Part shown: in pieces, positions 1,037 through 25,240 of the stretch | How the letters are laid out: the number at the start of each line of letters is the position of its first letter | Numbering within the stretch: position 1 is the stretch's first letter | NCBI GenBank assembly: GCA_965213685.1 | Contig: CBDBZY010000045.1 | Location: 24,684-88,683, forward strand | DNA: 64,000 nucleotides | DNA from: a bacterium | Lineage (GTDB): Bacteria > UBA8248 | Direction: 5' to 3' | Made by a program: the position numbers and the translations under genes | The notes under the pieces: generated by a model | Database searches by the model: none | Told to the model about the DNA's origin: nothing | Seen by the model: only the letters and a program-made list of their open reading frames with translations

Positions 1037-1555
1037 TTACGCCCGCTCCGTATAGGGAGCGCCCGTGGAGGACGGCAGGATTTTTCTTTCTATCATGGAG
1101 AGGAGTCCGATGAACACCGGCGCCAGGAGGACGTTCAGCCCCACGGTCCGGATTCCCTCCGTCCAGTATCCCGCCGGCAGGGTTTGGTCGGGCAGAAATA
1201 TTTTCACGAGCGCGGCGGAAAACAATATGTGGATGATCGATGCCAGGAGCGCCAGCGTGCATTGAAACAGGGTGGCGTGCGCCGAGGCGTTGCGTTGGCC
1301 TCCCGCGTAATGGCCGATCAGCCCTTTCAGCAGGGCGTTGAGGCCCAGCAGCCCCCCCGAGAGCACATCCTGAAAAAGCCCCAGGACGAATCCGCCGATG
1401 AGGCCCGTCGCCCGGTCCCGACGCAGTCCCAGGAAGACCGCGGCGAGGAGTATGGCGTCCGGCTTGGCGCCAACCCAGTCCAAGGCGTACATGCCCACTT
1501 GCGTATCAAAGGCGATCGCGGTGATGGCGAGTATGCAGTAGAACAGAACAATCAT
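1037..1555 (-). CDS. mreD: Rod shape-determining protein MreD
   Basis: Hydrophobic 172 aa protein with PD..L and GLFQDVLSGGLLGLNAL motifs, between mreC and mrdA. Confidence 0.9.
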   Translation of the reverse strand: MIVLFYCILAITAIAFDTQVGMYALDWVGAKPDAILLAAVFLGLRRDRATGLIGGFVLGLFQDVLSGGLLGLNALLKGLIGHYAGGQRNASAHATLFQCTLALLASIIHILFSAALVKIFLPDQTLPAGYWTEGIRTVGLNVLLAPVFIGLLSMIERKILPSSTGAPYTERA

Positions 1556-1557
1556 TC

Positions 1558-2391
1558 TCAGGGGTTTTCCTTTGGTTTGGTCATCAGGATCATGACTTCC
1601 TCCAGGCTGGAGAAGTTCACGACCGGCTTCGCCTTGATTTTCGGGAACAGCCCCCTCCTGTCGGAGATGTCGGTGATATGGGCCACGGGAAACCCTTTGG
1701 GGAAAATTCCGCCCAGGCCGGAGGAGACGAGCATGTCCCCCACCTTGATGTCGATTTCTCCGTCCGTCTCCATATAGCGCACCTCGCGCTCTCCCGTGGA
1801 GGAGATGGCGAAGACCCCCTGCGCGCGCGAGGGCTGCGCGATGACGTTGACCGCGCTTCTCGAATCAAGCAGGAGCAACACCTGGCTCACGCTGGACCCC
1901 ACGCGGAAAATTCTTCCCACCAGTCCCGCATGGTGAACGACCGGCATATTCTTGCGCACGCCATCTGCGGCGCCCAGGTCCACTATCAGCGATTTTCCAT
2001 AAATGTTTCTGTCGTGCGCCAGGATGCGGGCGAGGCGAACGGGCGCCGGCATGTTCCTGGAGGCTTGGAGCAATTTCTCCAGGCGCGCGATTTTCGATTT
2101 CATCTCCTGTATCTGCGCGTGGTGCACGCTGAGCGATTGCATCTTCTTCCTCAGTGCGGCGTTTTCTTCCCGGGCGTCCCGGAGTTCCCGGTATTCTCGC
2201 CAGGCGTCGCTCGACCATTTTCCGGGGACGGCGGCGATCCGGACGACCTGCCCCGTAAGGGAGAAAAGAATTCTGTCTATCAAGGTGGAGCGCCCCCGGA
2301 GGCGCACGCTGGACGTCATGAGCGCGAAACAGACGACAAACAGGGCGATGAGAAGGGTGGCGTTGCGGCGTTGGAGCAGGAACTGAACCAT
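1558..2391 (-). CDS. mreC: Rod shape-determining protein MreC
   Basis: N-terminal TM, coiled coil (ENAALR), GLVGRI and SSGLGGIFPKGFPV motifs. Confidence 0.95.
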   Translation of the reverse strand: MVQFLLQRRNATLLIALFVVCFALMTSSVRLRGRSTLIDRILFSLTGQVVRIAAVPGKWSSDAWREYRELRDAREENAALRKKMQSLSVHHAQIQEMKSKIARLEKLLQASRNMPAPVRLARILAHDRNIYGKSLIVDLGAADGVRKNMPVVHHAGLVGRIFRVGSSVSQVLLLLDSRSAVNVIAQPSRAQGVFAISSTGEREVRYMETDGEIDIKVGDMLVSSGLGGIFPKGFPVAHITDISDRRGLFPKIKAKPVVNFSSLEEVMILMTKPKENP

Positions 2392-2470
2392 CGTATTCGG
2401 GATTCGCTTTCAGCGCGAGCGGAAAATGTCATGCCGGAATTGCCGAAGCGCATGAAGAAGAGTGTTTCGG

Positions 2471-3676
<1,206 letters not shown>

Positions 3677-3789
3677 TCAGCCGTCTCCGTTTGCGATGCG
3701 GGGAGAGGTGGGCTATTTTCTGTTGCGTGGTCCGCCGCCATCGCGTTTGCGCGCGATGGGCCATCCATTTGGAAGGAGCCAGGATACGC

Positions 3790-5691
3790 ATGCTTCGCTT
3801 TTTGCGCAACAAGGGAAAGAGCTGGGTTCTGAAGGCGTTGCTGGGGTTTGTCGCGCTCACATTCGTCTCCTTCGGGGGGTTTGCCCTCACGGATGGGCCC
3901 AGTCATTCCGGAGGCGCGCGGGTGGCGGCATGGGTCGATGAGGCTCCCATATCGGTGCGCGAATTCGAGCAGCGCTATTATCAGCAGGCCGAGGCGATCA
4001 GGCGGCAGGTGGGCGACGCCTATAACGAGGAGCTGGCGCGCCGCCTGCGCCTGCGGCCCCGGGTGCTGGACGCCCTCGTTCTGGAGAAGCTGCAGCTGCG
4101 CGAGGCGCGGCGCCTCGGCGTTCAGGTCACCGATGCGGAGGTCGCGCTTCAGATACAGTCGGTTTCCGCCTTCCAGGAAGAGGGAAAATTCAGCCCCGAG
4201 CGCTACCGCGCCGTCCTGGAGTCGAACGGCCTTACCCCCCGCCAGTTCGAGGAGGAACAGAGGCGCGCCGTCTTGCTCGCGCAGCTTCGCGATTACGTGG
4301 GCATGGGGGTGTCGCTCGGCGAGCAGGAGGCACGCGACGCCTATGCGTGGAGAAACGCGGAGGTGAGGTTGGCCGCGATCCGGCTGCGCCCGGAGACGTT
4401 CGCCGGGGAAGTGCCGATCCTCGAAGATGACCTGAAGTCCCATTATGAAAAAAACAAGGAAACCTTCCGGACCGCTCCGCAAAGGAAGGTGTCCTGGTGG
4501 TATCTCCCGGTTTCCTCGGTTGCGCAAGGAATCGAGCTGGGCGATGCGGACTTGCGGGCACACTATGGCCGAACGCGCGCCAGGTATGCGAGAGAGGAGA
4601 GCGTCTCGATCAACCAGATCTTGCTGAAACTTCCTCCCGACGCGAAAAAAGAGGAGGTGGAGGCCAAAAGGAAAAAACTCGAAGCCCTGCGCGAGCGCGT
4701 CGTCAAGGGGGAGAAGTTCACCGAGTTGGCCCAGGCCCACTCCGAGGGTCCGGGGGCGAAGCGGGGGGGCGACCTCGGCACCTTCGGCAGAGGCCAGATG
4801 CTGCCCGAGTTGGAGAGTGCGGCGTATGCCCTCCGAAAGGGAGAGGTGAGCAAACCGGTGAAGACTTCTTTCGGGATGCACCTGTTGTGGGCGAGGGACA
4901 GGGTGCCGCCGGGCCACAAGCCGTTCGACGAGGCGCGGGAAGACGTGGAAAAAGACTTGCGGGGCTTACGGGCCAGGCAGCGGGCCAAGAGCGCGTTGCG
5001 GAAAATCCGCTACGCTGTGGAGGACAACAAGGCGGAGCCCCGCGTCGCCGGCCTGGAGAAGGGGGAAACGGATTTCTTTGAGGAAGGGCGCCTTTCCGCG
5101 CCGCATGTGCGCGCACCCGACCTGGTGAACGCGCTCGCCTTCGGTCTGAGCGGGGAGGAAAAAATCTCCAGGGAGGAGGAGGATGCGAACGGCGTCGCCT
5201 TCGTGCGGCTCGAGGCGAAAAGAGCGCCCTTTGTCCCCGAGTTCCCGGACGTGCGGAAGCGGGTGGAGACCGCGTTTCTGCATGCCAGGGGCGGTGAGAT
5301 CGCCAAGCGAAAGGCTGCGCTCTGGCTTCAGGAGTTGCGGGACAAAAAACGCACCCTCCGGGCCATCGCCGGGGCGCTCAAGTTGCAGGTGCTTGCGCCG
5401 GAGGCGTTCAGGCGCGGGGACGTTCCCGTCGCGCTGGGGTCGTCACGGGACGTCTCCGAGGCGGCATTCGCCCGGAGGAGCGGAGAATTCGGGATGGCCG
5501 AATCCGCCGGCGGGGTGATTCTGTTCGAAGTGCTGGAGGGGCCCGTGGCGGACATGAAACCGTTCGACTCCGAGAAGGAGAACTTCCGGCGAGAGGCGTT
5601 GCGCGTGAAGAGGGCGATGGCCTTCGGCCGGTATTTGGAAAAACTCCGGGAGACGGCCAACGTGCGCTTTGCGGAGGGATTCAGCATGTAG
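3790..5691 (+). CDS. ppiD: SurA N-terminal domain / PpiD-type peptidyl-prolyl isomerase
   Basis: N-terminal TM anchor, SurA_N-like helical region, parvulin motifs (FTELAQAHS, GGDLG, SKPVKTSFGMHL). Confidence 0.85.
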   Translation: MLRFLRNKGKSWVLKALLGFVALTFVSFGGFALTDGPSHSGGARVAAWVDEAPISVREFEQRYYQQAEAIRRQVGDAYNEELARRLRLRPRVLDALVLEKLQLREARRLGVQVTDAEVALQIQSVSAFQEEGKFSPERYRAVLESNGLTPRQFEEEQRRAVLLAQLRDYVGMGVSLGEQEARDAYAWRNAEVRLAAIRLRPETFAGEVPILEDDLKSHYEKNKETFRTAPQRKVSWWYLPVSSVAQGIELGDADLRAHYGRTRARYAREESVSINQILLKLPPDAKKEEVEAKRKKLEALRERVVKGEKFTELAQAHSEGPGAKRGGDLGTFGRGQMLPELESAAYALRKGEVSKPVKTSFGMHLLWARDRVPPGHKPFDEAREDVEKDLRGLRARQRAKSALRKIRYAVEDNKAEPRVAGLEKGETDFFEEGRLSAPHVRAPDLVNALAFGLSGEEKISREEEDANGVAFVRLEAKRAPFVPEFPDVRKRVETAFLHARGGEIAKRKAALWLQELRDKKRTLRAIAGALKLQVLAPEAFRRGDVPVALGSSRDVSEAAFARRSGEFGMAESAGGVILFEVLEGPVADMKPFDSEKENFRREALRVKRAMAFGRYLEKLRETANVRFAEGFSM

Positions 5692-5753
5692 GGGGATTTT
5701 CGGGACTTTCTTCGCCGTTTTTCGCTGCGCGCAGACGCGCGCCTGTTTCGCCG

Positions 5754-6068
5754 TTATCGCCAGAAATCCTCCCGGTCCTCGGGCCTGATCACGTGTTTCT
5801 CCTGCATCCCTTTCTCGAAGAGATCGGCCGCCTCTTTTTTCCTGGCCGCTTGCTGATGCATCAACTCCCGGATGTCGGGAGTCTTCTTCCTGGCCGCCTC
5901 GGCAAACGGGTCCTTGACCTGGTGGCGCAGAATCCGAACCGAATCCCCCTCCACCTCGAACCGGAGCTGGTTGCCGGGCACGGCGCCGATGGATTTCATG
6001 ATCTCCTTCGGGAGGTGGATTCTCCCCCCGTGTCCGATTTCGACGATGTGCGGTTTCTTGCTGTTCAT
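5754..6068 (-). CDS. AbrB/MazE/SpoVT-family DNA-binding protein
   Basis: GRIHLPKEIMKSIGAVPGNQLRFEVEG swapped-hairpin signature. Confidence 0.75.
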   Translation of the reverse strand: MNSKKPHIVEIGHGGRIHLPKEIMKSIGAVPGNQLRFEVEGDSVRILRHQVKDPFAEAARKKTPDIRELMHQQAARKKEAADLFEKGMQEKHVIRPEDREDFWR

Positions 6069-6171
6069 GCGACGCCCCCTCCTTCGCGCGCGGCGCCCTC
6101 GGCGCCTTCGGGGGGCAGACTACCAGCAGACGGGGAAAACAGGAAGCGCCCCTCCTCCGCGCGCGCCAGCG

Positions 6172-8727
6172 CTAGTCCCAGGAGCATAGGTGCGGGCTGA
6201 AGGGGTGGATGAGGTATGGGTGATGCGGCACCGCGCGAACCGACAGGCCATGCGCGCCTGTTTTGCGGCACTCGACCTCGCCATGAAAGCGGTAGGCGCC
6301 GTTCCCCAGATTCTCCGCGAGCCTCATGGGGGAGGCGACTCCGTTGGTCAACTGCTTCTCCTCCTTCATGGCACTCTCGTATATCTCGAGACGCACCTCC
6401 TCGGGCGAGAGCCTCCCGAGAGAGACCTCTGCCTCGACCCGTATTTTGGAGCCCAGCGGAACGACGCTGTTTTGCGGGGTCGAGATGTGGGTGATCTGTA
6501 TCCGGATGCCGGTCCACGCGCCGCGCGTCCGCTCCTTCCATTCGGAGAGGGCCTTCGCGGGCGTTCTCTCGTCCGCCATGAGGCGCGCGTGATGCGCTCC
6601 CAGGGGCATATAAAATTTTTCGGCGTATTCGCGCACCATGCGGGTCGTGTTGAAGTATGGGCAGAGCGATTCCAAGGAACGCTTGACCATCTCCATCCAG
6701 CGGCGGGGAACGCCCGCCTCGTCGCGCTCATAGAAGAGGGGAACCACGGTCTGCTCGAGAATGTTGAACAGGCTCTCGCACTCTATCTCGTCCTGGTAGT
6801 CGAGGTCGCCCTCCGCCTCCACGCTGCCGATGGCCCACCCGAGATGGTCGGCGTACCCCTCCGCCCACCAGCCGTCCAGTATGCTGAGGTTCAGGGCGCC
6901 GTTGGCGGCGGCCTTCATGCCGCTGGTTCCGCTCGCCTCCTGCGGGCGGCGGGGGTTGTTGAGCCATAAATCCACTCCTTGCACGAGTTGCCGCGCAACG
7001 TGGATGTCGTAGTCCTCTATGAATACGAGCTTGTCCCGCACGTTTTCCCTTCGGGCGAAATGGATGATCTCGCGGATAAAATTCTTGCCCTCCATGTCCC
7101 GGGGATGCGCCTTGCCGGCGAATATGATTTGGACGGGTTTTTCCTTGTTCGTGAGGAGCGCAACGAGTCGTTCGGGTTTTTTGAGCAAGAGGATGGCGCG
7201 CTTGTAGGTGGCGAAGCGCCGCGCGAATCCGATCGTCAGCGCCTGGGGGTTGGGGAGCATGGTCGCGTTGGAGCGGCTGACGCTCCCCGGTGGGCGCCTG
7301 GAGGCGTGCTTGCGGCAAAATTCGATGAGGCGCTCGCGGTTTTTCTCCTTCACCCTCCAGATATCCTCCGCCGGGATGGAGGCGGCCCCCTCCCATATCT
7401 CGGGATTGTCCGTCTCGTCCATCCAGCCGCCCCCCAGGTGGCGGGCGAACACTCCCTTCATCTCCGTGGACACCCATGTGGGGAAATGCACCCCGTTCGT
7501 GATGGAGTCGATGGGAATATCCCAGCTGGGGACTTCCGGCCACATGGATTGCCACATCTTCCGAGAGACCTCCCCATGCAGCTTGCTGACGCCGTTTGCC
7601 GCCGAGGAGAGGCGAAGCGCGAGGATGGCCATGTTGAAGGGCTCGCTCTCCTGCTTCGGGTGTACCCGGCCCAGGCCCATGAACTCGTCCCAGCCCATCG
7701 AGAGGGATTCCGCGTAGGAGCGAAAATATTTTTCCATCATGGCGGGCGGGAAGATGTCGATGCCCGCCGGAACGGGCGTGTGCGTCGTGAAGATGTTGCC
7801 GGCGGAGGTCAGCTCCCGGGCGGTGCCGGCGTCGATGCCGAATTTCCGCATCGAGAACCGGATTCTCTCGATCGCCAGGAAGGCGGAGTGCCCCTCGTTC
7901 ATGTGGCACACGACGGGCGGGAGATTCAGCTTGTGGAGGAGCCGGACGCCGCCGATGCCGAGCAATATCTCCTGGCGAATCCGCGTCTCCATGTCCCCGC
8001 CGTAAAGTGCCAGGGTAATTTCGCGCAGCGAGGGCGCGTTTTCCGGAATGTTGGCGTCCAGGAGGTAGATGGAGTTCCGCCCCACCTGGACGCGCCATAT
8101 TTGCGCGGTGAGGAGGCCGTCGGGGTAGTCGATTTCCACCGTGGTGGGCGCGCCGCTCTCGTCGCACTCCAGGTGGATGGGCATGTGGTGAAACTCGTTG
8201 TCCGGGTAATGCTCTTGCTGCCAGCCGTCGGGGCCGATGTGCTGTCGAAAATATCCCTGGCTGTACAAGAGGCCGACGCCGATGAGGGGAAGCCCCAGGT
8301 CGCTTGCGGACTTCATGTGGTCGCCGGCGAGAATGCCCAAGCCGCCCGAGTAGTTGGGGAGGGATTCCGTCAGCCCGAACTCCATGCTGAAATACGCGAT
8401 GCGGAGAGCGGCGTCTTTCTCGCCCTCGGGCAGGTTCTGGTACCAGGTGGGTTTTTCGCAATACGCGCGCAGCTCCTGCCGGACGCCCTTCATCTCGCTG
8501 AGGAAGCGCGGGTCGCCCGCCGCCTCGTTCAGCCGCTCCTGGGAGACGGAGCGCAGCATCTTCACGGGATTTTGATGGCACTCCTCCCATTCCGTTTTGT
8601 CGAGCCGACGGAACAGCGCGCGCGCCCGATGGTTCCAGTCGAAGGCGACGTTGTGGGCGATTTCTTCGATCTCCCCCAGCGCGGGGGGAATGCTGGGCAC
8701 TACCTGAAACGAGAGCACATGGGTCAT
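6172..8727 (-). CDS. glgP: Alpha-glucan (glycogen) phosphorylase
   Basis: AYFSMEFG, YSGGLGILAGD, FARRFATYKR and EASGTSGMK (PLP lysine) motifs. Confidence 0.96.
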   Translation of the reverse strand: MTHVLSFQVVPSIPPALGEIEEIAHNVAFDWNHRARALFRRLDKTEWEECHQNPVKMLRSVSQERLNEAAGDPRFLSEMKGVRQELRAYCEKPTWYQNLPEGEKDAALRIAYFSMEFGLTESLPNYSGGLGILAGDHMKSASDLGLPLIGVGLLYSQGYFRQHIGPDGWQQEHYPDNEFHHMPIHLECDESGAPTTVEIDYPDGLLTAQIWRVQVGRNSIYLLDANIPENAPSLREITLALYGGDMETRIRQEILLGIGGVRLLHKLNLPPVVCHMNEGHSAFLAIERIRFSMRKFGIDAGTARELTSAGNIFTTHTPVPAGIDIFPPAMMEKYFRSYAESLSMGWDEFMGLGRVHPKQESEPFNMAILALRLSSAANGVSKLHGEVSRKMWQSMWPEVPSWDIPIDSITNGVHFPTWVSTEMKGVFARHLGGGWMDETDNPEIWEGAASIPAEDIWRVKEKNRERLIEFCRKHASRRPPGSVSRSNATMLPNPQALTIGFARRFATYKRAILLLKKPERLVALLTNKEKPVQIIFAGKAHPRDMEGKNFIREIIHFARRENVRDKLVFIEDYDIHVARQLVQGVDLWLNNPRRPQEASGTSGMKAAANGALNLSILDGWWAEGYADHLGWAIGSVEAEGDLDYQDEIECESLFNILEQTVVPLFYERDEAGVPRRWMEMVKRSLESLCPYFNTTRMVREYAEKFYMPLGAHHARLMADERTPAKALSEWKERTRGAWTGIRIQITHISTPQNSVVPLGSKIRVEAEVSLGRLSPEEVRLEIYESAMKEEKQLTNGVASPMRLAENLGNGAYRFHGEVECRKTGAHGLSVRAVPHHPYLIHPFSPHLCSWD

Positions 8728-10221: not shown

Positions 10222-10254
10222 ATTCTTGACAATTTTATTTGGGAATTATAGTCT
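10222..10254 (+). promoter_or_regulatory. Sigma70 promoter of the cys operon with an overlapping IscR/Rrf2-type operator
   Basis: TTGACA (10226-31), N17, TAGTCT (10249-54). A 25-bp imperfect palindrome ATTCTTGACAATTTTATTTGGGAAT (10222-46) covers the -35. Confidence 0.6.
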
Positions 10255-10313
10255 CCCGTTGGCCGGGTGGGAGCGAGGAAGAAGGGATTCGGAGGAACGG
10301 GAAGGGTATTCTC

Positions 10314-11273
10314 ATGGCATTGGGCGCCCGAGGCCGTCCGCCCCAGATTTTGAGGGCGCTGCCCTCGCTGATTGATCGCATCGGGGGGACGAGCCTGGTT
10401 CAGCTGCAGCGCCTGCCCCGCTCCTCCGGCGCGCGCGTGTTCGCCAAGCTGGAGCAATACAACCCCGGCGGAAGCGTCAAGGATCGCATCGCGCTCAGCA
10501 TGGTGCTGGACGCCGAGCGGCGTGGACTCCTCCAGCCCGGGGGCACTATCGTCGAGCCTACGAGCGGCAACACGGGCATCGGCTTGGCGCTCATCGGCGC
10601 CATTCGCGGCTATCGAACGATCATCGTGCTGAGCAGGAGCATGAGCCACGAGCGGCACTCCCTGCTCAAGGGCTACGGGGCGGAGGTGGTCTTCAGCTCC
10701 TGCGAGGGCGGCATGTACGGCTCGGTGCTGAAGGCGGAGTCCCTTCTGGCGGACAATCCGGATTACTTCATGCCCCAGCAGTTCAACAACCCGGCCAATC
10801 CGGAGATTCACCGCAGGACGACGGCGCGGGAGATTTTGCGGGACATGGGGGCGGAATCGATAGACGCCTTCGTGGCGGGCGTGGGGACGGGAGGCACCAT
10901 CACCGGCGTGGGGGAGGTTTTGAAGCAAAGAAGGCCCGAAACCCGCATCGTCGGGGTGGAGCCGGCGGCTTCTCCCGTCCTCTCCGGCGGGGAGCCGGGC
11001 CCGCACCAGATACAGGGGATCGGCGCCGGCTTCATCCCCGAGGTTTTGAACCGCTCGATCATGGACGAGGTGGTCCAGGTAACCGATGCGGACGCCTACG
11101 ACATGAGCAAGGCACTGAGCCGGGAGGAGGGCATGGCCGCGGGCATTTCGGCCGGCGCGGCCGTTTGCGCGGCCCTGCGCGTGGCCGGGCGGATGGGTCC
11201 GCAGGAGAACGTGGTGGTCGTCATCCCCGATGGATGGGAGAGGTATTATAGTCTGGAGCGGCAGTTTCATTAG
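10314..11273 (+). CDS. cysK: Cysteine synthase A
   Basis: KLEQYNPGGSVKDR, EPTSGNTGIG, GVGTGGT and PHQIQGIGAGFIP motifs. Confidence 0.93.
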   Translation: MALGARGRPPQILRALPSLIDRIGGTSLVQLQRLPRSSGARVFAKLEQYNPGGSVKDRIALSMVLDAERRGLLQPGGTIVEPTSGNTGIGLALIGAIRGYRTIIVLSRSMSHERHSLLKGYGAEVVFSSCEGGMYGSVLKAESLLADNPDYFMPQQFNNPANPEIHRRTTAREILRDMGAESIDAFVAGVGTGGTITGVGEVLKQRRPETRIVGVEPAASPVLSGGEPGPHQIQGIGAGFIPEVLNRSIMDEVVQVTDADAYDMSKALSREEGMAAGISAGAAVCAALRVAGRMGPQENVVVVIPDGWERYYSLERQFH

Positions 11274-11339
11274 AATGAGAGACGCGAAATCGCATTTCGC
11301 CACCCCCCGAAGAGGGATTTTCAAGATCAGGAGGCAGAG

Positions 11340-11648
11340 ATGGCGGTAACGGTTCATATCCCGACACCCTTGCAGGAGTTCACCCAGCAGCAGGACGCCG
11401 TGGAGGTCGAGGGCGAAAACGTCCGGGAAGTGCTCGCAACCCTCGACGAGCGGTTCACGGGCATTCGCCAGCGCCTCTATGACGAGGAGGGCAGGCTGCG
11501 CCGCTTTGTGAACATCTATGTGAACCAGGAGGATATTCGCTTCCTGCAAGGCGAGGGGACGGAGTTGAGCGATGGCGACGAGCTCTCCATCGTGCCGGCC
11601 ATCGCGGGGGGTGCGCATCGCTCGCGTCCGGAATCCGCATCCCTTTGA
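11340..11648 (+). CDS. MoaD/ThiS/CysO-family sulfur carrier protein with an 11-aa extension after the Gly-Gly motif
   Basis: Ubiquitin-like sequence (VHIPTPL, RRFVNIYVN..DIRFL, IVPAIAGG) followed by AHRSRPESASL. Confidence 0.92.
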   Translation: MAVTVHIPTPLQEFTQQQDAVEVEGENVREVLATLDERFTGIRQRLYDEEGRLRRFVNIYVNQEDIRFLQGEGTELSDGDELSIVPAIAGGAHRSRPESASL

Positions 11649-11669
11649 TGATGAGAGGAGCGCCTCTCC

Positions 11670-12326
11670 ATGAGTCTGGGGGAGGAGCAGATACAGCGCT
11701 ACAGTCGGCACATCCTTCTGCCCGGAGTGGGAGGGATCGGGCAGGAGCGTCTGCTGGCGTCGTCCGCCCTCATCGCGTTTTCGGCGAGGGAGGAGGGCGC
11801 CGCCGTCGTGGCCCTGACGTATCTGGCCGCGGCGGGCTTGGGCCGCATCGGGTGGTGTCCGCTGGAAGGCGCCCGCGGGGGAGGCGGACTTCGGGACGAA
11901 TCGCCGTTTCTCTCGTTTCTGGGCGCCTGTGCGGAAGATGGCGTCCGAAGCCTCAATCCGGATGCGGAGCTGATTCCCTGTCGCCCGGACGAGGCGGCGG
12001 CGGAGGTTTTTGACGCCCTCGTCTGGCTGGGCGACGCATCGGGTTTCGCGGGGCGCAAGCCTGCGGCCAGGATCACCCTGCGGGGCGCCGCCGGCGATGA
12101 GGCGGGCGAGATTCTCGAGGGGAGCGGCGGCCCCTTCGGGGATTTGGCCTCCCGGAGCCGGGGCGAAGGCGCGCCGATGGCGGCGACCCAGGGCGTCCTC
12201 GGTGCGTGGCTGGCGGCCAGGTGCTTGCGGCGTCTGTTGGATGGGGAGGATACGGTGGGGTCGACTGCGCAGGCCCGTTTTGATCTTTCGCGTGGCTTCC
12301 TGGAAGCGAATGCGAATGTTTCCTGA
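11670..12326 (+). CDS. ThiF/MoeB-like protein, degenerate (no P-loop, no Zn-binding CxxC)
   Basis: N-terminal RYSRHILL...GQERL and YLAAAGLGRIG are retained; the GxGxxG position reads FSAREEG. Confidence 0.75.
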   Translation: MSLGEEQIQRYSRHILLPGVGGIGQERLLASSALIAFSAREEGAAVVALTYLAAAGLGRIGWCPLEGARGGGGLRDESPFLSFLGACAEDGVRSLNPDAELIPCRPDEAAAEVFDALVWLGDASGFAGRKPAARITLRGAAGDEAGEILEGSGGPFGDLASRSRGEGAPMAATQGVLGAWLAARCLRRLLDGEDTVGSTAQARFDLSRGFLEANANVS

Positions 12327-12361
12327 AAATGTTTCTGCGTCACAGAACGAGGGCCGGACCG

Positions 12362-13309
12362 ATGGTCGAACCAGCGGTGGAGAACCCGAGGAGCGCGTTT
12401 AGGGCCATAGAGGATTCCGCAATCATCCGGTGCATCGGCAAGACCCCCCTGTTGCGGATCCGTGCGTTCGAGAGCGAATTTCCAGAAGTGGAGGTCTATG
12501 CCAAGGCGGAGTGGTTCAATCCGGGCGGATCGGTGAAGGACAGGCCCGCACTCTATATGATGAAGGAGGGGCTGGAATCGGGAGCGTTGCGGCCGGGCAA
12601 GATTCTTCTCGATTCCACCAGCGGGAATACGGGCATCGCCTACGCCATGATCGGAGCGGCGCTGGGGATTCCCGTCCGCCTAGTTCTTCCGGCGAACGCG
12701 AGTGAGGAGCGCAAGGCGACGTTGCGGGCCTATGGCGCCGACGTCGTGTATTCGGACCCGATGGAGGGCTCCGACGGCGCGCAGCGGCTCGCGGCGGCTA
12801 TGTTCCGGGAGGAGCCGGAGAAGTATTTCCTGCCGTGCCAGTATGATAACCCGGCCAACCCGCTCGCCCATGTGGAAACCACGGCGGTGGAGATTCTGGA
12901 GCAAACCGACGGGCGCGTGGCGCATTTCGTCGCCGGCCTGGGCACGACGGGCACCCTGGTGGGCACGGGGCGCGGCTTGAAGATGCGAAAGGCGGATGTC
13001 GCGGTGCATGCGGTCATGCCGTCCGACTCCTTTCACGGCCTCGAGGGGATGAAGCACATTCCCACGGCCATTCGCCCGGGGATTTACGACGAGGGCGTGC
13101 ACGACCGGCTGATTCTGGCGGGCACCGAGGAGAGCTATCACCTCGCCGAGAGGGTCGCGCGGGAGGAGGGCGTCTTTATCGGCCACTCCGCCGGCGCCGC
13201 GCTCGTGGGCGTCCGCGAGGTGGCGAAGCGGGTAGGGGAGGGCGTCGTCGTCACCGTGTTTCCCGACGGCGGAGACCGGTATTTGAGCGAGGCGCGCCAG
13301 GGAGGCTGA
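12362..13309 (+). CDS. cysM: Cysteine synthase B / sulfur-carrier-dependent (CysM-type) sulfhydrylase
   Basis: KAEWFNPGGSVKDR, DSTSGNTG and GLGTTGT motifs; co-located with CysO-like and Mec-like genes. Confidence 0.85.
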   Translation: MVEPAVENPRSAFRAIEDSAIIRCIGKTPLLRIRAFESEFPEVEVYAKAEWFNPGGSVKDRPALYMMKEGLESGALRPGKILLDSTSGNTGIAYAMIGAALGIPVRLVLPANASEERKATLRAYGADVVYSDPMEGSDGAQRLAAAMFREEPEKYFLPCQYDNPANPLAHVETTAVEILEQTDGRVAHFVAGLGTTGTLVGTGRGLKMRKADVAVHAVMPSDSFHGLEGMKHIPTAIRPGIYDEGVHDRLILAGTEESYHLAERVAREEGVFIGHSAGAALVGVREVAKRVGEGVVVTVFPDGGDRYLSEARQGG

Positions 13310-13314
13310 ATGAT

Positions 13315-13812
13315 TTGCGATTGAACCGCGAACAGGTGGAGGCGATGTACCGGCACGCGCGCGCGGCCTATCCCGATGAGTGTTGCGGCCTCATCACCGG
13401 CCCGCCGCCTGCGGAGGATGGGGGGCCGGACGCGCCCCTGCGCCTTTTCCCCTGCAGGAACGTCCAGGACGAGATGCGCGCGAAAGACCCGCAGGCCTAT
13501 CCCCGAACGGGGCGGCGCGCCTTTTTGATCGATCCGTTCGAATTCGAGCGCATCCTCCGGGAGGCGGAGGAGGCGGGCGAGGTGATTCGCGGGATATTCC
13601 ACAGCCACCCGGATGAGGACGCCTATTTCTCCCGGGAGGACAAGGATGCGGCGCTTCCCTTCGGGGACATCCCCTCGTTTCCGCATGCCGGACACATCGT
13701 CATGAGCGTGCGCGGAGGGGTGGTTTGCGGCGAGAAGGTGTTTTTTTGGGACGCGGGGCAGAAAGATTTCGTCCCGGGCGACCTGGAGGTGACGGAGGAA
13801 GCGGGCGGGTGA
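13315..13812 (+). CDS. JAB/MPN (Mec-type, M67) metallopeptidase
   Basis: AYPDECCGL and FHSHPDEDAYFSRED (JAMM HxH-x7-S-x2-D). TTG start. Confidence 0.92.
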   Translation: MRLNREQVEAMYRHARAAYPDECCGLITGPPPAEDGGPDAPLRLFPCRNVQDEMRAKDPQAYPRTGRRAFLIDPFEFERILREAEEAGEVIRGIFHSHPDEDAYFSREDKDAALPFGDIPSFPHAGHIVMSVRGGVVCGEKVFFWDAGQKDFVPGDLEVTEEAGG

Positions 13813-14660
13813 GCCGCGAGAGCGACCTCGCGCGTTCGCCGGATGAGGAGCAGGCCGCGCCCGCGGGCCCGTCCGGGGGCCGCGTGTCCGATGCGCAGTC
13901 TCTCGCGCGTTCATCGGCCCTTGTCCTGGGAGTCGGCGGCATCGGCTCGCCCGCGGCGCTGGCGCTCGCGGCATCCGGCGTGGGGCGGATCGGCGTGGTC
14001 GATCATGACAGGGTGGACCTCGGCAACCTGGCGCGTCAGATTCTCCACCGGACGGAGGACTTGGGCCGCGAGAAGGTGGATTCGGGCGCGGATTCCATCC
14101 GCAGGCTCTCCGCCCGGACGGCGGTGGACGCCATTCCCCGCAGGCTCACGCCCGCGAACGCCGCCGAAATCATCGCCCCCTACGATGTCGTCGTGGACGG
14201 CAGCGACAACCTGCTCTCGAAGCTCGCCCTCAACGACGCCTGCGCCGCATCCGGCAAGCCCTGGGTGATGGGGGGCGTGCTGCGGTTTTTCGGGCAGGCG
14301 ATGACCATTCTGCCGGGCAGGAGCGCATGTCTGCGGTGCCTGGTGGGCGAGGAGGGCGCGGGGGCGCGGGGGCTGGACTGCGGGGATGCGGGCGTCTTCG
14401 GCGCCGTGGCCGGTTTTGTGGGCATGGCGCAGGCGGCCGATGCGATCCGGGTTCTTCTGGGGCTGGAGCCGGCCTGGTCGAACAGGTTGATGACGGCTGA
14501 TTTTTGGAAAAATGCCTTCGGCGGCCTGCGGGTGGCGCGGAATGCGGATTGTCCCGCCTGCGCGCTTGCGAGGCGCCGGAGCGTGGAGGCCCCGATGGTC
14601 CGGGAAGCGTCCGGGGAAGGGATGCTGCAGGGACGCCTCATGGGAGGATGCCGCCGATGA
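13809..14660 (+). CDS. moeB: MoeB/ThiF adenylyltransferase (E1-like)
   Basis: GVGGIG P-loop, DRVDLGNLARQILH, DGSDN, CLRC...CPAC Zn motifs. GTG start overlaps the Mec stop. Confidence 0.88.
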   Translation: MSRESDLARSPDEEQAAPAGPSGGRVSDAQSLARSSALVLGVGGIGSPAALALAASGVGRIGVVDHDRVDLGNLARQILHRTEDLGREKVDSGADSIRRLSARTAVDAIPRRLTPANAAEIIAPYDVVVDGSDNLLSKLALNDACAASGKPWVMGGVLRFFGQAMTILPGRSACLRCLVGEEGAGARGLDCGDAGVFGAVAGFVGMAQAADAIRVLLGLEPAWSNRLMTADFWKNAFGGLRVARNADCPACALARRRSVEAPMVREASGEGMLQGRLMGGCRR

Positions 14661-15115
14661 AGATATCGACCAAGGGACGATACGCCGTGCTCGCCATGAT
14701 AGAGCTGGCGCGGCACTCGCAAACGCACCCGGTTCCCTTGCCCCAGATAGCCGGCAAGCTGGAAATCAGCCAGCACTACCTGGAGCAGCTGTTCGTGAAG
14801 ATGCGCCGGGCCTCGCTGGTGCGCAGCACGAGGGGGCCGGGAGGCGGCTACATCCTGGCGCGGCCCCCCTCCCGAATCAACATGCGCGACGTTCTGTTCG
14901 CGGTGGAGGAAACCGTCCAGCCGGTGGATTGCGGAGAGGCGCCGCCTTCCGTTCCGTGCCCGAACATCCGGGCGTGCGGAAGCCGCATTCTGTGGAAGAG
15001 GCTCGAGGATGCGATAGACAAGACGTTGCGGGAGACCACGCTGGAGGAGTTGAGCGCGCGCCCGGCCGGGGAGGGAGAGGGCGTCCGCCTGCCGAGTTTC
15101 CAGGTGAGCATCTAG
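14657..15115 (+). CDS. Rrf2-family transcriptional regulator (IscR/CymR-like, three Cys)
   Basis: MKISTKGRYA, YLEQLF, STRGPGGGYIL motifs and a C-x8-C-x5-C cluster. Confidence 0.92.
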   Translation: MKISTKGRYAVLAMIELARHSQTHPVPLPQIAGKLEISQHYLEQLFVKMRRASLVRSTRGPGGGYILARPPSRINMRDVLFAVEETVQPVDCGEAPPSVPCPNIRACGSRILWKRLEDAIDKTLRETTLEELSARPAGEGEGVRLPSFQVSI

Positions 15116-24091: not shown

Positions 24092-25240
24092 TCAACCTAG
24101 GTGGCGGAATACCTCGCCCACAATCCGCATCCCCTTCTCGATCGCCTCCTCCTCCACCGAATAGGTGAAGCGCAGGTGGCCCTCTCCCGCGTCGCCGAAC
24201 TCCGAGCCGCTGCGGATCGCGGCCCCGGCCTCCCAGATGCGCTTTCGCACCTCGACGGAGGGAATCGGGTATTCATACCGGCAGTATTGATAGAAGCCGC
24301 CCTGGGGCTGGATGGGAATCAGTCCGGGGATGGCCTGCGTCATCTCATGGATGAGGCGGCCCCGCCTGTGGTATTCGCGTCCCATTTGCGCCACGCATTC
24401 CTGGGAGCCTCTCAGGGCGGCGGCGCCCGCGCGCTGGACGAAGGTGTTGATCGGCCCGTTGATCGCGCGGTGAACGCCGAACATCGTCCGGGCCAAATCC
24501 TCCGGAACGGCCATGTAGCCCAGACGCCAGCCGGTCATCGAATAGGTCTTGGAAAAGGTGTCGAGGAGGACGAGGCGCGCCCTGTGTCCGGTGAACGAGA
24601 GGAGGGGGACGTGCTGGAAGCCGGGCTGGAGGATTTTCGCGTACGCCTCATCCGATACGACCATGAGGTCGCGCTCCGCCGCGAGTTCGACCAGCCCCTC
24701 CAGCTCCTCGCGCCGATAGACCACGCCCGTGGGGTTGTTCGGGTTGTTCATGAAAATCAGGCGCGTCCTCGGGGTGATGGCGCGGCGAACGGCCTCGACG
24801 TCGATATGATAGTCCGCGTCGTGCGGCACCTCCACCGGGACGGCGCCTATCTGCCGCGCGACGTGGGAGTAGAGGGAAAAGGTGGGGTCCATCAGTATCG
24901 CCTCATCCCCCGGGTCGAGGAACGTCGTCATGACGGCGTATATGCCGGAGCTCGCCCCGTTCGTGGCGATGATGGACGCGGGCGCATACTCCGCCCCCGC
25001 CTCGCGCGCGATGTGCTCGCACACGGCCTCGAGGAACTGCGGATCCCCCTGGCCCGGGGCATAGCCCGTCAGTCCCTGGTCGAGCGCCTCCTTGGCGGCG
25101 GAGCGGATGTGCTCGGGCGTGGGGAAGTCGGGCGTTCCCGAATCCAGACGCACCATGCCCGGCGGCCTTCGGGCCGTCATGTGGGCGGCGCGCTCCCCGC
25201 CCGAGGTTTCGGCGACGTTTCTGGCGATGCGTCTTTTCAT
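24092..25240 (-). CDS. Class I/II pyridoxal-phosphate aminotransferase
   Basis: GTPDFPTP, NNPNNPTG, SDEAY and FSKTYSMTGWRLG motifs. Confidence 0.92.
   Translation of the reverse strand: MKRRIARNVAETSGGERAAHMTARRPPGMVRLDSGTPDFPTPEHIRSAAKEALDQGLTGYAPGQGDPQFLEAVCEHIAREAGAEYAPASIIATNGASSGIYAVMTTFLDPGDEAILMDPTFSLYSHVARQIGAVPVEVPHDADYHIDVEAVRRAITPRTRLIFMNNPNNPTGVVYRREELEGLVELAAERDLMVVSDEAYAKILQPGFQHVPLLSFTGHRARLVLLDTFSKTYSMTGWRLGYMAVPEDLARTMFGVHRAINGPINTFVQRAGAAALRGSQECVAQMGREYHRRGRLIHEMTQAIPGLIPIQPQGGFYQYCRYEYPIPSVEVRKRIWEAGAAIRSGSEFGDAGEGHLRFTYSVEEEAIEKGMRIVGEVFRHLG

Follow-up and report, generated by a model that had tools for sequence, protein, structure and literature searches.

Complementary Active-Site Losses in Two MoeB/ThiF-Type Proteins of a Bacterial Sulfur-Carrier Operon Suggest a Heterodimeric E1-Like Enzyme

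We have analysed a 64,000-nucleotide stretch of bacterial DNA (the window; positions 24,684 to 88,683 of contig CBDBZY010000045.1, assembly GCA_965213685.1, GTDB lineage UBA8248), in which two genes of one sulfur-carrier operon encode proteins related to the adenylyltransferases MoeB and ThiF. These proteins, A and B, have lost complementary parts of the active site: A keeps the N-terminal arginine-finger segment and has lost the other active-site motifs, and B retains every cis-acting catalytic residue and lacks the finger. We consider it probable that A and B form a heterodimeric carrier-activating enzyme that arose by complementary degeneration. Their operon (10239-15115) comprises seven closely packed genes on the + strand in the order CysK, ThiS-like carrier, A, CysM, JAMM, B and Rrf2. 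The identical seven-gene order was found in 20 of 20 related loci, with CysM and JAMM always between A and B. The two genes under study are:

11670..12326, + strand: protein A, ThiF-fold, proposed inactive subunit (hhalign against the B/MoeB profile; no Pfam match)
13809..14660, + strand: protein B, MoeB-type adenylyltransferase, proposed active subunit (PF00899, E 4.2e-62)

Protein A Is a Degenerate ThiF Fold That Keeps the Finger Segment

A consists of 218 residues and has an ATG start codon with a GGAG-type Shine-Dalgarno sequence upstream. Its residues 10-14 read RYSRH, the position of the GxGxxG loop is occupied by FSAREEG, and both NLxRQ and CxxC are missing. The early GVGGIG of A aligns with the segment before GQE rather than with the P-loop. 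No Pfam family matched A at E≤0.1, so that A does not belong to PF00899 by the family model, and the NCBIfam matches, to the N-termini of MoeB and UbaA, covered residues 2-62 only and fell far below the cut-offs. Pairwise BLAST of A against B gave nothing significant. In the profile-profile comparison with hhalign, residues 1-191 of A were homologous to the B/MoeB profile (probability 99.5%, E 2.9e-22), and because this alignment spans residues 1-191 we regard A as a whole but degenerate ThiF fold. For the same reason, the possibility that A is the N-terminal fragment of a split gene was rejected. Mapped through a solved ThiF chain, Arg13 of A aligns with Arg11 of ThiF. The equivalents of MoeB Gly41, Arg73, Lys86 and Asp130, the roles of which are described in PMC12355090, are all lost in A, other residues having replaced them at the aligned positions.

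An alignment of 27 A sequences, with identities down to 41%, contains 33 invariant columns. Arg10, Tyr11, Ser12 and His14 are invariant and Arg13 is present in 26 of the 27. Residues 1-30 form the most conserved segment of the protein (0.88); residues 63-94 and 122-170 are long, variable stretches. The reading frame is open in all 20 related loci, at lengths of 210-232 residues. The start codon varies: ATG in the window is replaced at the equivalent position by TTG in 18 and by GTG in two of the 20 related loci (L109-L128). Weak starts of this kind may keep the ratio of A to B low, or may reflect a coupling of A translation to the carrier gene.

Protein B Has a Complete Active Site and No Finger Segment

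The 283-residue protein B starts with a GTG codon that overlaps the stop codon of the JAMM gene, an overlap shared by most of the 20 related loci. It matches PF00899 with 209.8 bits (cut-off 28.1) over profile positions 14-238 only. This is its sole real domain match, besides a sub-threshold match to another Rossmann-type family, and no rhodanese domain was found in it. Scans with Pfam and NCBIfam detected neither a catalytic-cysteine domain nor an E2-docking ubiquitin-fold domain in A or B. The motifs GVGGIG, NLARQ and DGSDN, two CxxC and the crossover-loop Cys are all present in B, and the equivalents of MoeB Gly41, Arg73, Lys86 and Asp130 are retained. In an alignment of 26 sequences, comprising the B family and canonical MoeB relatives, Gly41, Gly43, Gly46, Arg76, Lys89, Asp133, Cys174, Cys177, Cys248 and Cys251 of B are invariant.

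The first ~40 residues of B do not contain RYxR, and Ala17, counted on the alignment, stands at the canonical spacing of the finger arginine. Residues 1-29 are the least conserved part of B (0.22). Orthologues have 11-40 variable residues before the P-loop, as either a tail of 32-40 residues or a version shortened to 11-17. A longer B initiated from TTG at 13725 is unlikely, since the added codons would fall within the JAMM gene and the orthologous B genes begin at its stop codon. It is also unlikely that an RYxR is hidden in another frame upstream, where the DNA is JAMM coding sequence and the other frames show none.

An earlier reading of the window, made from the letters and their open reading frames (the sequence-only reading), had described these motifs and had called A and B paralogues. 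Both open reading frames and every motif statement were confirmed, including the displaced GVGGIG of A and the Ala in B, and the kinship of A and B holds at the profile level only.

The Complementarity Is Conserved in Both Families

Clustered at 90%, the relatives of A number about 65. Their identity to A is 41-82%, their length 198-232 residues apart from a few fragments, and their names, wherever given, are Nitrospinae or Nitrospinota. RYSRH is found in 62 of the 65 clusters and RYSHH in one, the remaining two being N-terminally truncated fragments; NLxRQ and CxxC are each absent from all 65, and a GxG[GA]xG-like loop is kept in two. The B family, of about 69 clusters, is the mirror image, with R[YF]xR before the P-loop in none of the 69, NLxRQ in 69 and at least two CxxC in 67. 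Among the next 51 matches of the B search, R[YF]xR is present in 46. Seen in 65 A clusters, 69 B clusters and 20 of 20 related loci, the complementarity of the A and B motifs is beyond chance.

An exhaustive search with the A profile yielded only 8 representatives at E≤1e-30, and a scan of genome contigs gave 6 true A loci among the best 80, labelled Nitrospinota, Nitrospinaceae or 'bacterium'; 28 further loci inspected in that scan were canonical MoeB genes. In a metagenome scan, no full-length relative of A was found among the best 80 of at least 599 stretches, these 80 loci either matching the N-terminal part of A only or being less than 40% identical.

A and B Are Inherited and Lost Together

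The sequence-only reading had proposed a co-occurrence check, which we carried out on 50 other genomes of the window's phylum. A and B are both present in 28 genomes and both missing in 20, and in the remaining two the locus is interrupted by contig ends: in G009 one contig end carries the start of A and another carries CysM-JAMM-B, and in G022, which has A, the contig ends right after JAMM. In none of the 50 genomes is one of the two genes present and the other demonstrably absent.

The rest of the operon (CysK, ThiS, CysM, JAMM and Rrf2) is retained in 11 genomes without A and B. B is missing between JAMM and Rrf2 in all 11 of these loci, and A is missing between ThiS and CysM in all 10 that cover this position. 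A tree built from the flanking proteins of 32 loci implies 5 joint changes of the A+B state, of which well-supported branches force at least 3. C-terminal remnants of A were recognized in the spacers of three genomes (G023, 25 residues, E 3.5e-8; G034, 22 residues, E 1e-5; G037, 75 residues and degraded, E 2e-8) and a C-terminal remnant of B in one (G010, 42 residues, E 1.7e-13). Since deletion scars remain, the absence of A and B is a secondary loss in three lineages; and since the two genes between A and B were kept, each joint loss required two separate deletions. The expectation of the earlier reading that A and B belong together is thus strongly supported.

Two genomes of the sample deserve separate mention. 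In G038, which lacks A and B, the CysM match (L135; G038:C50:27594-37567, ~7470-7650) covers residues 254-326 only, and the carrier route itself seems to be decaying there. In G029, of the same genus as the window, contigs C6 and C8 hold two copies each of A, JAMM and B; the estimated contamination is 16%, and the double copies most likely represent two strains in one bin and not a true duplication.

A Is under Purifying Selection

Pairwise comparisons gave a median dN/dS of 0.37 for A, of 0.27 for B and of 0.11-0.15 for the five neighbouring genes. A is relaxed yet clearly constrained, under purifying selection. This selection and the mirror-image conservation of the N-termini of A and B likewise support the expectation that the two proteins belong together. 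Of the 21 gene pairs in the operon, A and B show the highest correlation of residual branch rates on a fixed topology (r 0.36, nominal p 0.023).

A Model for Carrier Activation by A and B

In the model that we favour, A and B would be two subunits of one asymmetric E1-like (activating-enzyme-like) adenylyltransferase dedicated to the CysO-like carrier of the operon. The C-terminus of the window carrier consists of AIAGG followed by 11 residues (AIAGG plus 1-2 residues in the orthologues), so that the tail behind the Gly-Gly must be removed, and the JAMM protease would do so first. B would then bind ATP-Mg as well as the Gly-Gly at the carrier's C-terminus and make the acyl-adenylate. A, a ThiF-fold pseudo-enzyme taking the place of the second protomer of a MoeB/ThiF homodimer, would give the dimer its scaffold, and Arg13 of its N-terminal helix would complete the nucleotide site of B in trans, replacing the arginine missing from B. 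Such a role has precedents, ThiF Arg11 and MoeB Arg14 being reported to act from the neighbouring subunit (PMC13139853) and Uba4 Arg18 likewise from the partner subunit (PMC7527816). Because finger and active site lie on different polypeptides, at most one complete site per dimer would be expected. The carrier would be thiocarboxylated by a sulfur donor encoded outside the operon, since B is without a rhodanese domain; CysM would turn the thiocarboxylate into a carrier-cysteine adduct, and JAMM would cleave the adduct. The motif complementarity and its conservation, the co-inheritance and joint loss of A and B and the purifying selection on A are observed; that A and B bind each other, that Arg13 acts in trans, that there is a single active site and that the pair arose by complementary degeneration of two once-intact E1 paralogues at these operon positions, we infer. 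Motif complementarity and co-inheritance speak for the dimer indirectly.

Several observations weigh against this model. In MoeB and in ThiF the arginine finger is reported not to be essential (PMC13139853), so B alone might still adenylate the carrier, and the word 'obligate', which the sequence-only reading had applied to the pair, is too strong. A may be chiefly a structural partner, because these fingers are dispensable and because the inactive partner in the yeast Tcd1-Tcd2 pair, discussed below, matters mainly for solubility. The finger arginine is replaced by His in one A lineage (RYSHH; P0055, L123). The dN/dS of A is the highest in the operon, and the covariation of the A and B rates is weak, its p value being uncorrected for 21 comparisons on branches that are not independent. 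Co-loss is proof that A and B share a function, but not that they share a complex. The trees give no sister group for A, which stands on a stem of ~2.8 changes per site, or for B. Finally, among matches of the B search outside the close B family, the MoeB-like proteins P0204, P0224, P0231 and P0235 are also without the RYxR N-terminus; these may be mis-called starts, distant relatives of B or independent cases.

Several of these points would suit an alternative that we regard as rather unlikely, in which B works as a self-sufficient finger-less homodimer and A is a non-catalytic accessory that replaces no protomer of B, acting as a regulator or as a scaffold or chaperone for the carrier, CysM or the sulfur donor. 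MoeB and ThiF reportedly can do without their fingers, and Escherichia coli TcdA has none (PMC13139853); every cis-acting catalytic residue is present in B; the co-loss is compatible with any shared role in the pathway; and some other MoeB-like proteins apparently also lack the N-terminal segment. However, this alternative leaves unexplained why A, which has lost all other active-site motifs, conserves its finger segment best, and why the N-terminus of B has drifted or been deleted only in lineages that have A. A also keeps the whole ThiF fold, which is reported to dimerise in all characterised relatives (PMC10557695), and the rest of the pathway manages without an A-like accessory in the genomes that lack A and B.

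It is very unlikely that A partners the housekeeping rhodanese-MoeB fusion instead, or bridges this fusion to B and so brings a persulfide-carrying rhodanese to the carrier adenylate on B. Such a role would supply the sulfur donor that B, itself without a rhodanese domain, needs, and the genome does encode a 411-residue rhodanese-ThiF fusion with an intact RYSRH-type N-terminus, a gene type found in nearly all relatives. The presence of A, however, tracks B, and the fusion is present with or without A; the fusion has its own arginine finger and P-loop and needs no donor of one, and it lies on a different contig from A, with no gene linkage. That A is a functionless decaying duplicate, its frame surviving by chance or by translational coupling to CysM, is extremely unlikely in spite of its dN/dS, its failure to match Pfam, its long variable stretches and its several deletions, in view of a ratio well below neutrality, an open frame in 20 of 20 loci, 33 invariant columns in 27 sequences, 65 protein clusters and the loss of B wherever A is lost, which would be unexpected for a functionless gene.

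Comparison with Known Carrier-Activating Enzymes

The operon as a whole resembles the CysO-CysM-Mec+-MoeZR system of Mycobacterium tuberculosis (PMC3227635). Both have a ubiquitin-fold carrier with a Gly-Gly end, a CysM-type synthase, a JAMM/Mec+ protease and an E1-like activator, and in the window all four functions are in one operon. PF02597, PF00291 and PF14464 occur there together and in conserved order, as in the CysO/CysM/Mec+ gene set; an activator of the MoeZ-rhodanese type is missing from the window operon. The M. tuberculosis activator is described as a single MoeZ-rhodanese fusion, mostly without CxxC (PMC3227635), whereas the window has a rhodanese-less B with two CxxC and a separate A. 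The tail after the Gly-Gly of the window carrier is a further difference. CysM is likely the user of the carrier thiocarboxylate, and, by analogy with the M. tuberculosis pathway (PMC3227635), JAMM likely both trims the carrier tail and frees cysteine from the carrier-cysteine adduct. It is from the gene content that we infer the thiocarboxylate to be the sulfur donor of CysM and the JAMM protease to release the cysteine. Relatives without A and B presumably rely on the rhodanese-MoeB fusion of their genome.

B shares the fold, the P-loop, the Arg/Lys/Asp triad and the zinc site with E. coli MoeB and ThiF, and the N-terminus of A aligns with theirs, including the finger arginine. In the symmetric homodimers of MoeB and ThiF there are two active sites, and the N-terminal arginine of one subunit completes the site of the other (PMC13139853, PMC12355090); in the window, by contrast, finger and site are on different proteins. 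The eukaryotic enzymes NAE1-UBA3 and SAE1-SAE2 combine an inactive and an active adenylation domain in a pseudo-symmetric arrangement, with the key arginine coming from the inactive one (PMC10557695, PMC12355090). Unlike these, the window pair has no Cys domain, no ubiquitin-fold domain and no conjugating enzyme (E2), and its product is presumably a metabolic thiocarboxylate and not a conjugate. The parallel with eukaryotic E1 that the earlier reading had drawn thus stands for the adenylation module and does not extend to a catalytic-cysteine domain, an E2-docking domain or a nearby E2. A and B together are not a member of the canonical E1 class.

Two further enzymes show this division of labour. 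In bacteria, BilD serves as the E1 of BilABCD, an antiviral ubiquitination system; its inactive (IAD) and active (AAD) adenylation domains are fused, there is one active site, and Arg9 is contributed by the IAD (PMC10557695). All of this lies, however, on one chain that also has a mobile Cys domain, and the partners of BilD in defence are an E2, a deubiquitinase and a ubiquitin-like protein, whereas A and B are encoded by separate genes, two genes apart, in a biosynthetic operon. According to the same source, all known bacterial E1-like proteins besides BilD are homodimers (PMC10557695). The division of labour between A and B would be paralleled most closely by yeast Tcd1-Tcd2, the tRNA ct6A dehydratase, a heterodimer of ThiF-domain paralogues in which the inactive Tcd1 gives Arg59 to the finger-less Tcd2 (PMC13139853). 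This pair differs in being eukaryotic and mitochondrial, in having a tRNA substrate and in carrying an extra C-terminal domain on both proteins. Mutation of its finger is reported to cost only 26% of the activity, the inactive partner serving mainly the solubility of the active one (PMC13139853). A limited search of the open-access literature found no description of a two-gene bacterial heterodimeric E1-like enzyme, and a text search of PMC1779556 for inactive or paralogous members turned up only inactive E2-like domains.

Loci with Two E1-Type Genes and the Possible Ancestry of A and B

A locus in genome G051, which lies outside the window's phylum, carries two intact E1-type genes (L259 = G051:C31:154500-163500, ~1300-7700, + strand). 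Its gene order is CysK, ThiS, E1a, two DsrE-like genes, CysM, JAMM, TusA, E1b and Rrf2. E1a and E1b occupy the positions of A and B, and both have RYSR, the P-loop, NLQRQ and two CxxC. The operon of G051 is a plausible candidate for the ancestral state with two intact copies. Its tie to A and B is one of position, because the trees leave the sister groups undecided, and no member of the A family was found among the 17 genomes of the phylum group of G051. The DsrE-like genes and TusA of this locus are possible sulfur-relay partners; the window operon is without them.

In the trees A and B each form a clade of their own, A on a long stem, and nothing points to an origin shared with the eukaryotic subunits. 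Some deeper A branches (G009; P0055, P0061) still have a recognisable glycine-rich loop, and the arginine segment is found in nearly all members. Duplication followed by complementary degeneration would fit both the locus with two intact E1 genes and these residual loops.

Related clusters occur in five Nitrospirota genomes (G055, G063, G052, G058 and G075; loci L256, L257, L258, L263 and L264, respectively). L256 contains, in this order, a CysK-like gene, E1a, a 460-residue pyridoxal phosphate enzyme, ThiS, a NIL-domain protein, E1b and JAMM, with two intact ThiF/MoeB genes ~2.6 kb apart. In the other four loci CysK, E1a, ThiS and E1b were mapped in the order of L256, plus JAMM in three of them.

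A different kind of pair, consisting of a degenerate and an active ThiF protein, was seen in an Opitutia genome (L260; G100:C141:3000-10000, 2305-4518, - strand). Three genes are adjacent there. The first encodes a small protein that ends in AGG and has no Pfam match; the second, a 243-residue ThiF-family protein (PF00899, E 1.5e-49) in which motif patterns found no RYxR, NLxRQ or DxxDN; and the third, a canonical MoeB-type protein of 382 residues with a long C-terminal extension. In this pair it is the degenerate member that is without the finger.

A Possible Wider Class of Pseudo-E1 Proteins

The search with the A profile also returned more distant proteins: 49 of the best-150 cluster representatives, all at least 190 residues long, keep RYSR and are without NLxRQ and DxxDN. 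In a follow-up search, 16 of 116 matches belong to the same RYSR-only ThiF-like class. Its members (P0246-P0383, P0386-P0495; alignment A3) measure 204-267 residues and usually have two CxxC. When 27 such proteins, including 11 of the 49, were aligned, two finger arginines, the tyrosine and four zinc cysteines proved invariant. None of 10 members scanned reached an NCBIfam cut-off, and one is labelled Candidatus Binatia. When genomic loci of this class were sought, the top matches in 50 genomes were ordinary ThiF genes in the 9 regions inspected; and in the phylum of genome G071 none of 301 sampled genomes had a match at E≤1e-68, a guessed threshold, with 9 candidates scored per genome.

We put forward, tentatively, the broader idea that an asymmetric E1 arose independently in a bacterial sulfur-carrier pathway by complementary degeneration, and that A and B could be the tip of a larger class of stand-alone pseudo-E1 proteins partnering active ThiF/MoeB proteins across bacteria. 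If this is true, duplication and complementary loss can suffice to produce the eukaryotic design of one inactive and one active E1 subunit, and no connection with protein conjugation is needed. The lineage would then be an unusually clean natural experiment, with a possible ancestral two-copy state, a derived split state and repeated joint losses. It would also allow the contributions of the trans arginine and of the second protomer to be studied directly, given the reports that the MoeB and ThiF fingers are dispensable (PMC13139853). For annotation this would advise caution: B-type genes called 'MoeB' may encode proteins that are inactive alone, and A-type genes, mostly unnamed, would not be junk.

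The Other Genes of the Operon

The other five genes of the operon are:

10239..11273, + strand: CysK-type cysteine synthase A, first operon gene (PF00291, E 2.4e-79; TIGR01139 cysK, 403.5 bits, cut-off 350.95)
11340..11648, + strand: ThiS/MoaD/SAMP-like sulfur-carrier protein, CysO-like (PF02597, E 1.2e-18; nearest NCBIfam models SAMP1 and moaD_arch)
12329..13309, + strand: CysM-type cysteine synthase (PF00291, E 1.9e-65; best NCBIfam model TIGR01138 cysM, 336 bits, below the cut-off of 394.2)
13315..13812, + strand: JAMM/MPN+ metalloprotease, Mec+-like (PF14464 Prok-JAB, E 2.6e-19)
14654..15115, + strand: Rrf2-family regulator, IscR/CymR-like, last operon gene, overlapping the end of B by 7 nt (PF02082, E 6.2e-37; rrf2 superfamily model above its cut-off)

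Adjacent operon genes are at most 66 nt apart, and two pairs overlap, one by 4 nt and one by 7 nt. A scan for promoters and terminators gave a result at chance level, and no E2-like protein is encoded by any of the seven genes. The CysK gene keeps its place in all 20 related loci. The Rrf2 gene is kept downstream of B, or downstream of JAMM in the loci that have lost B.

Elsewhere in the window's own genome (G000), contig C51 shows ThiF-family matches in several frames at ~78.7-80.0 kb (L145), with stops between them, as if split by introns. This locus adjoins long dinucleotide microsatellites and looks like eukaryotic DNA that was binned with the bacterium. Such binned DNA may explain the size of G000, 7.97 Mb, as against 2.9-4.6 Mb in genomes of the same genus.

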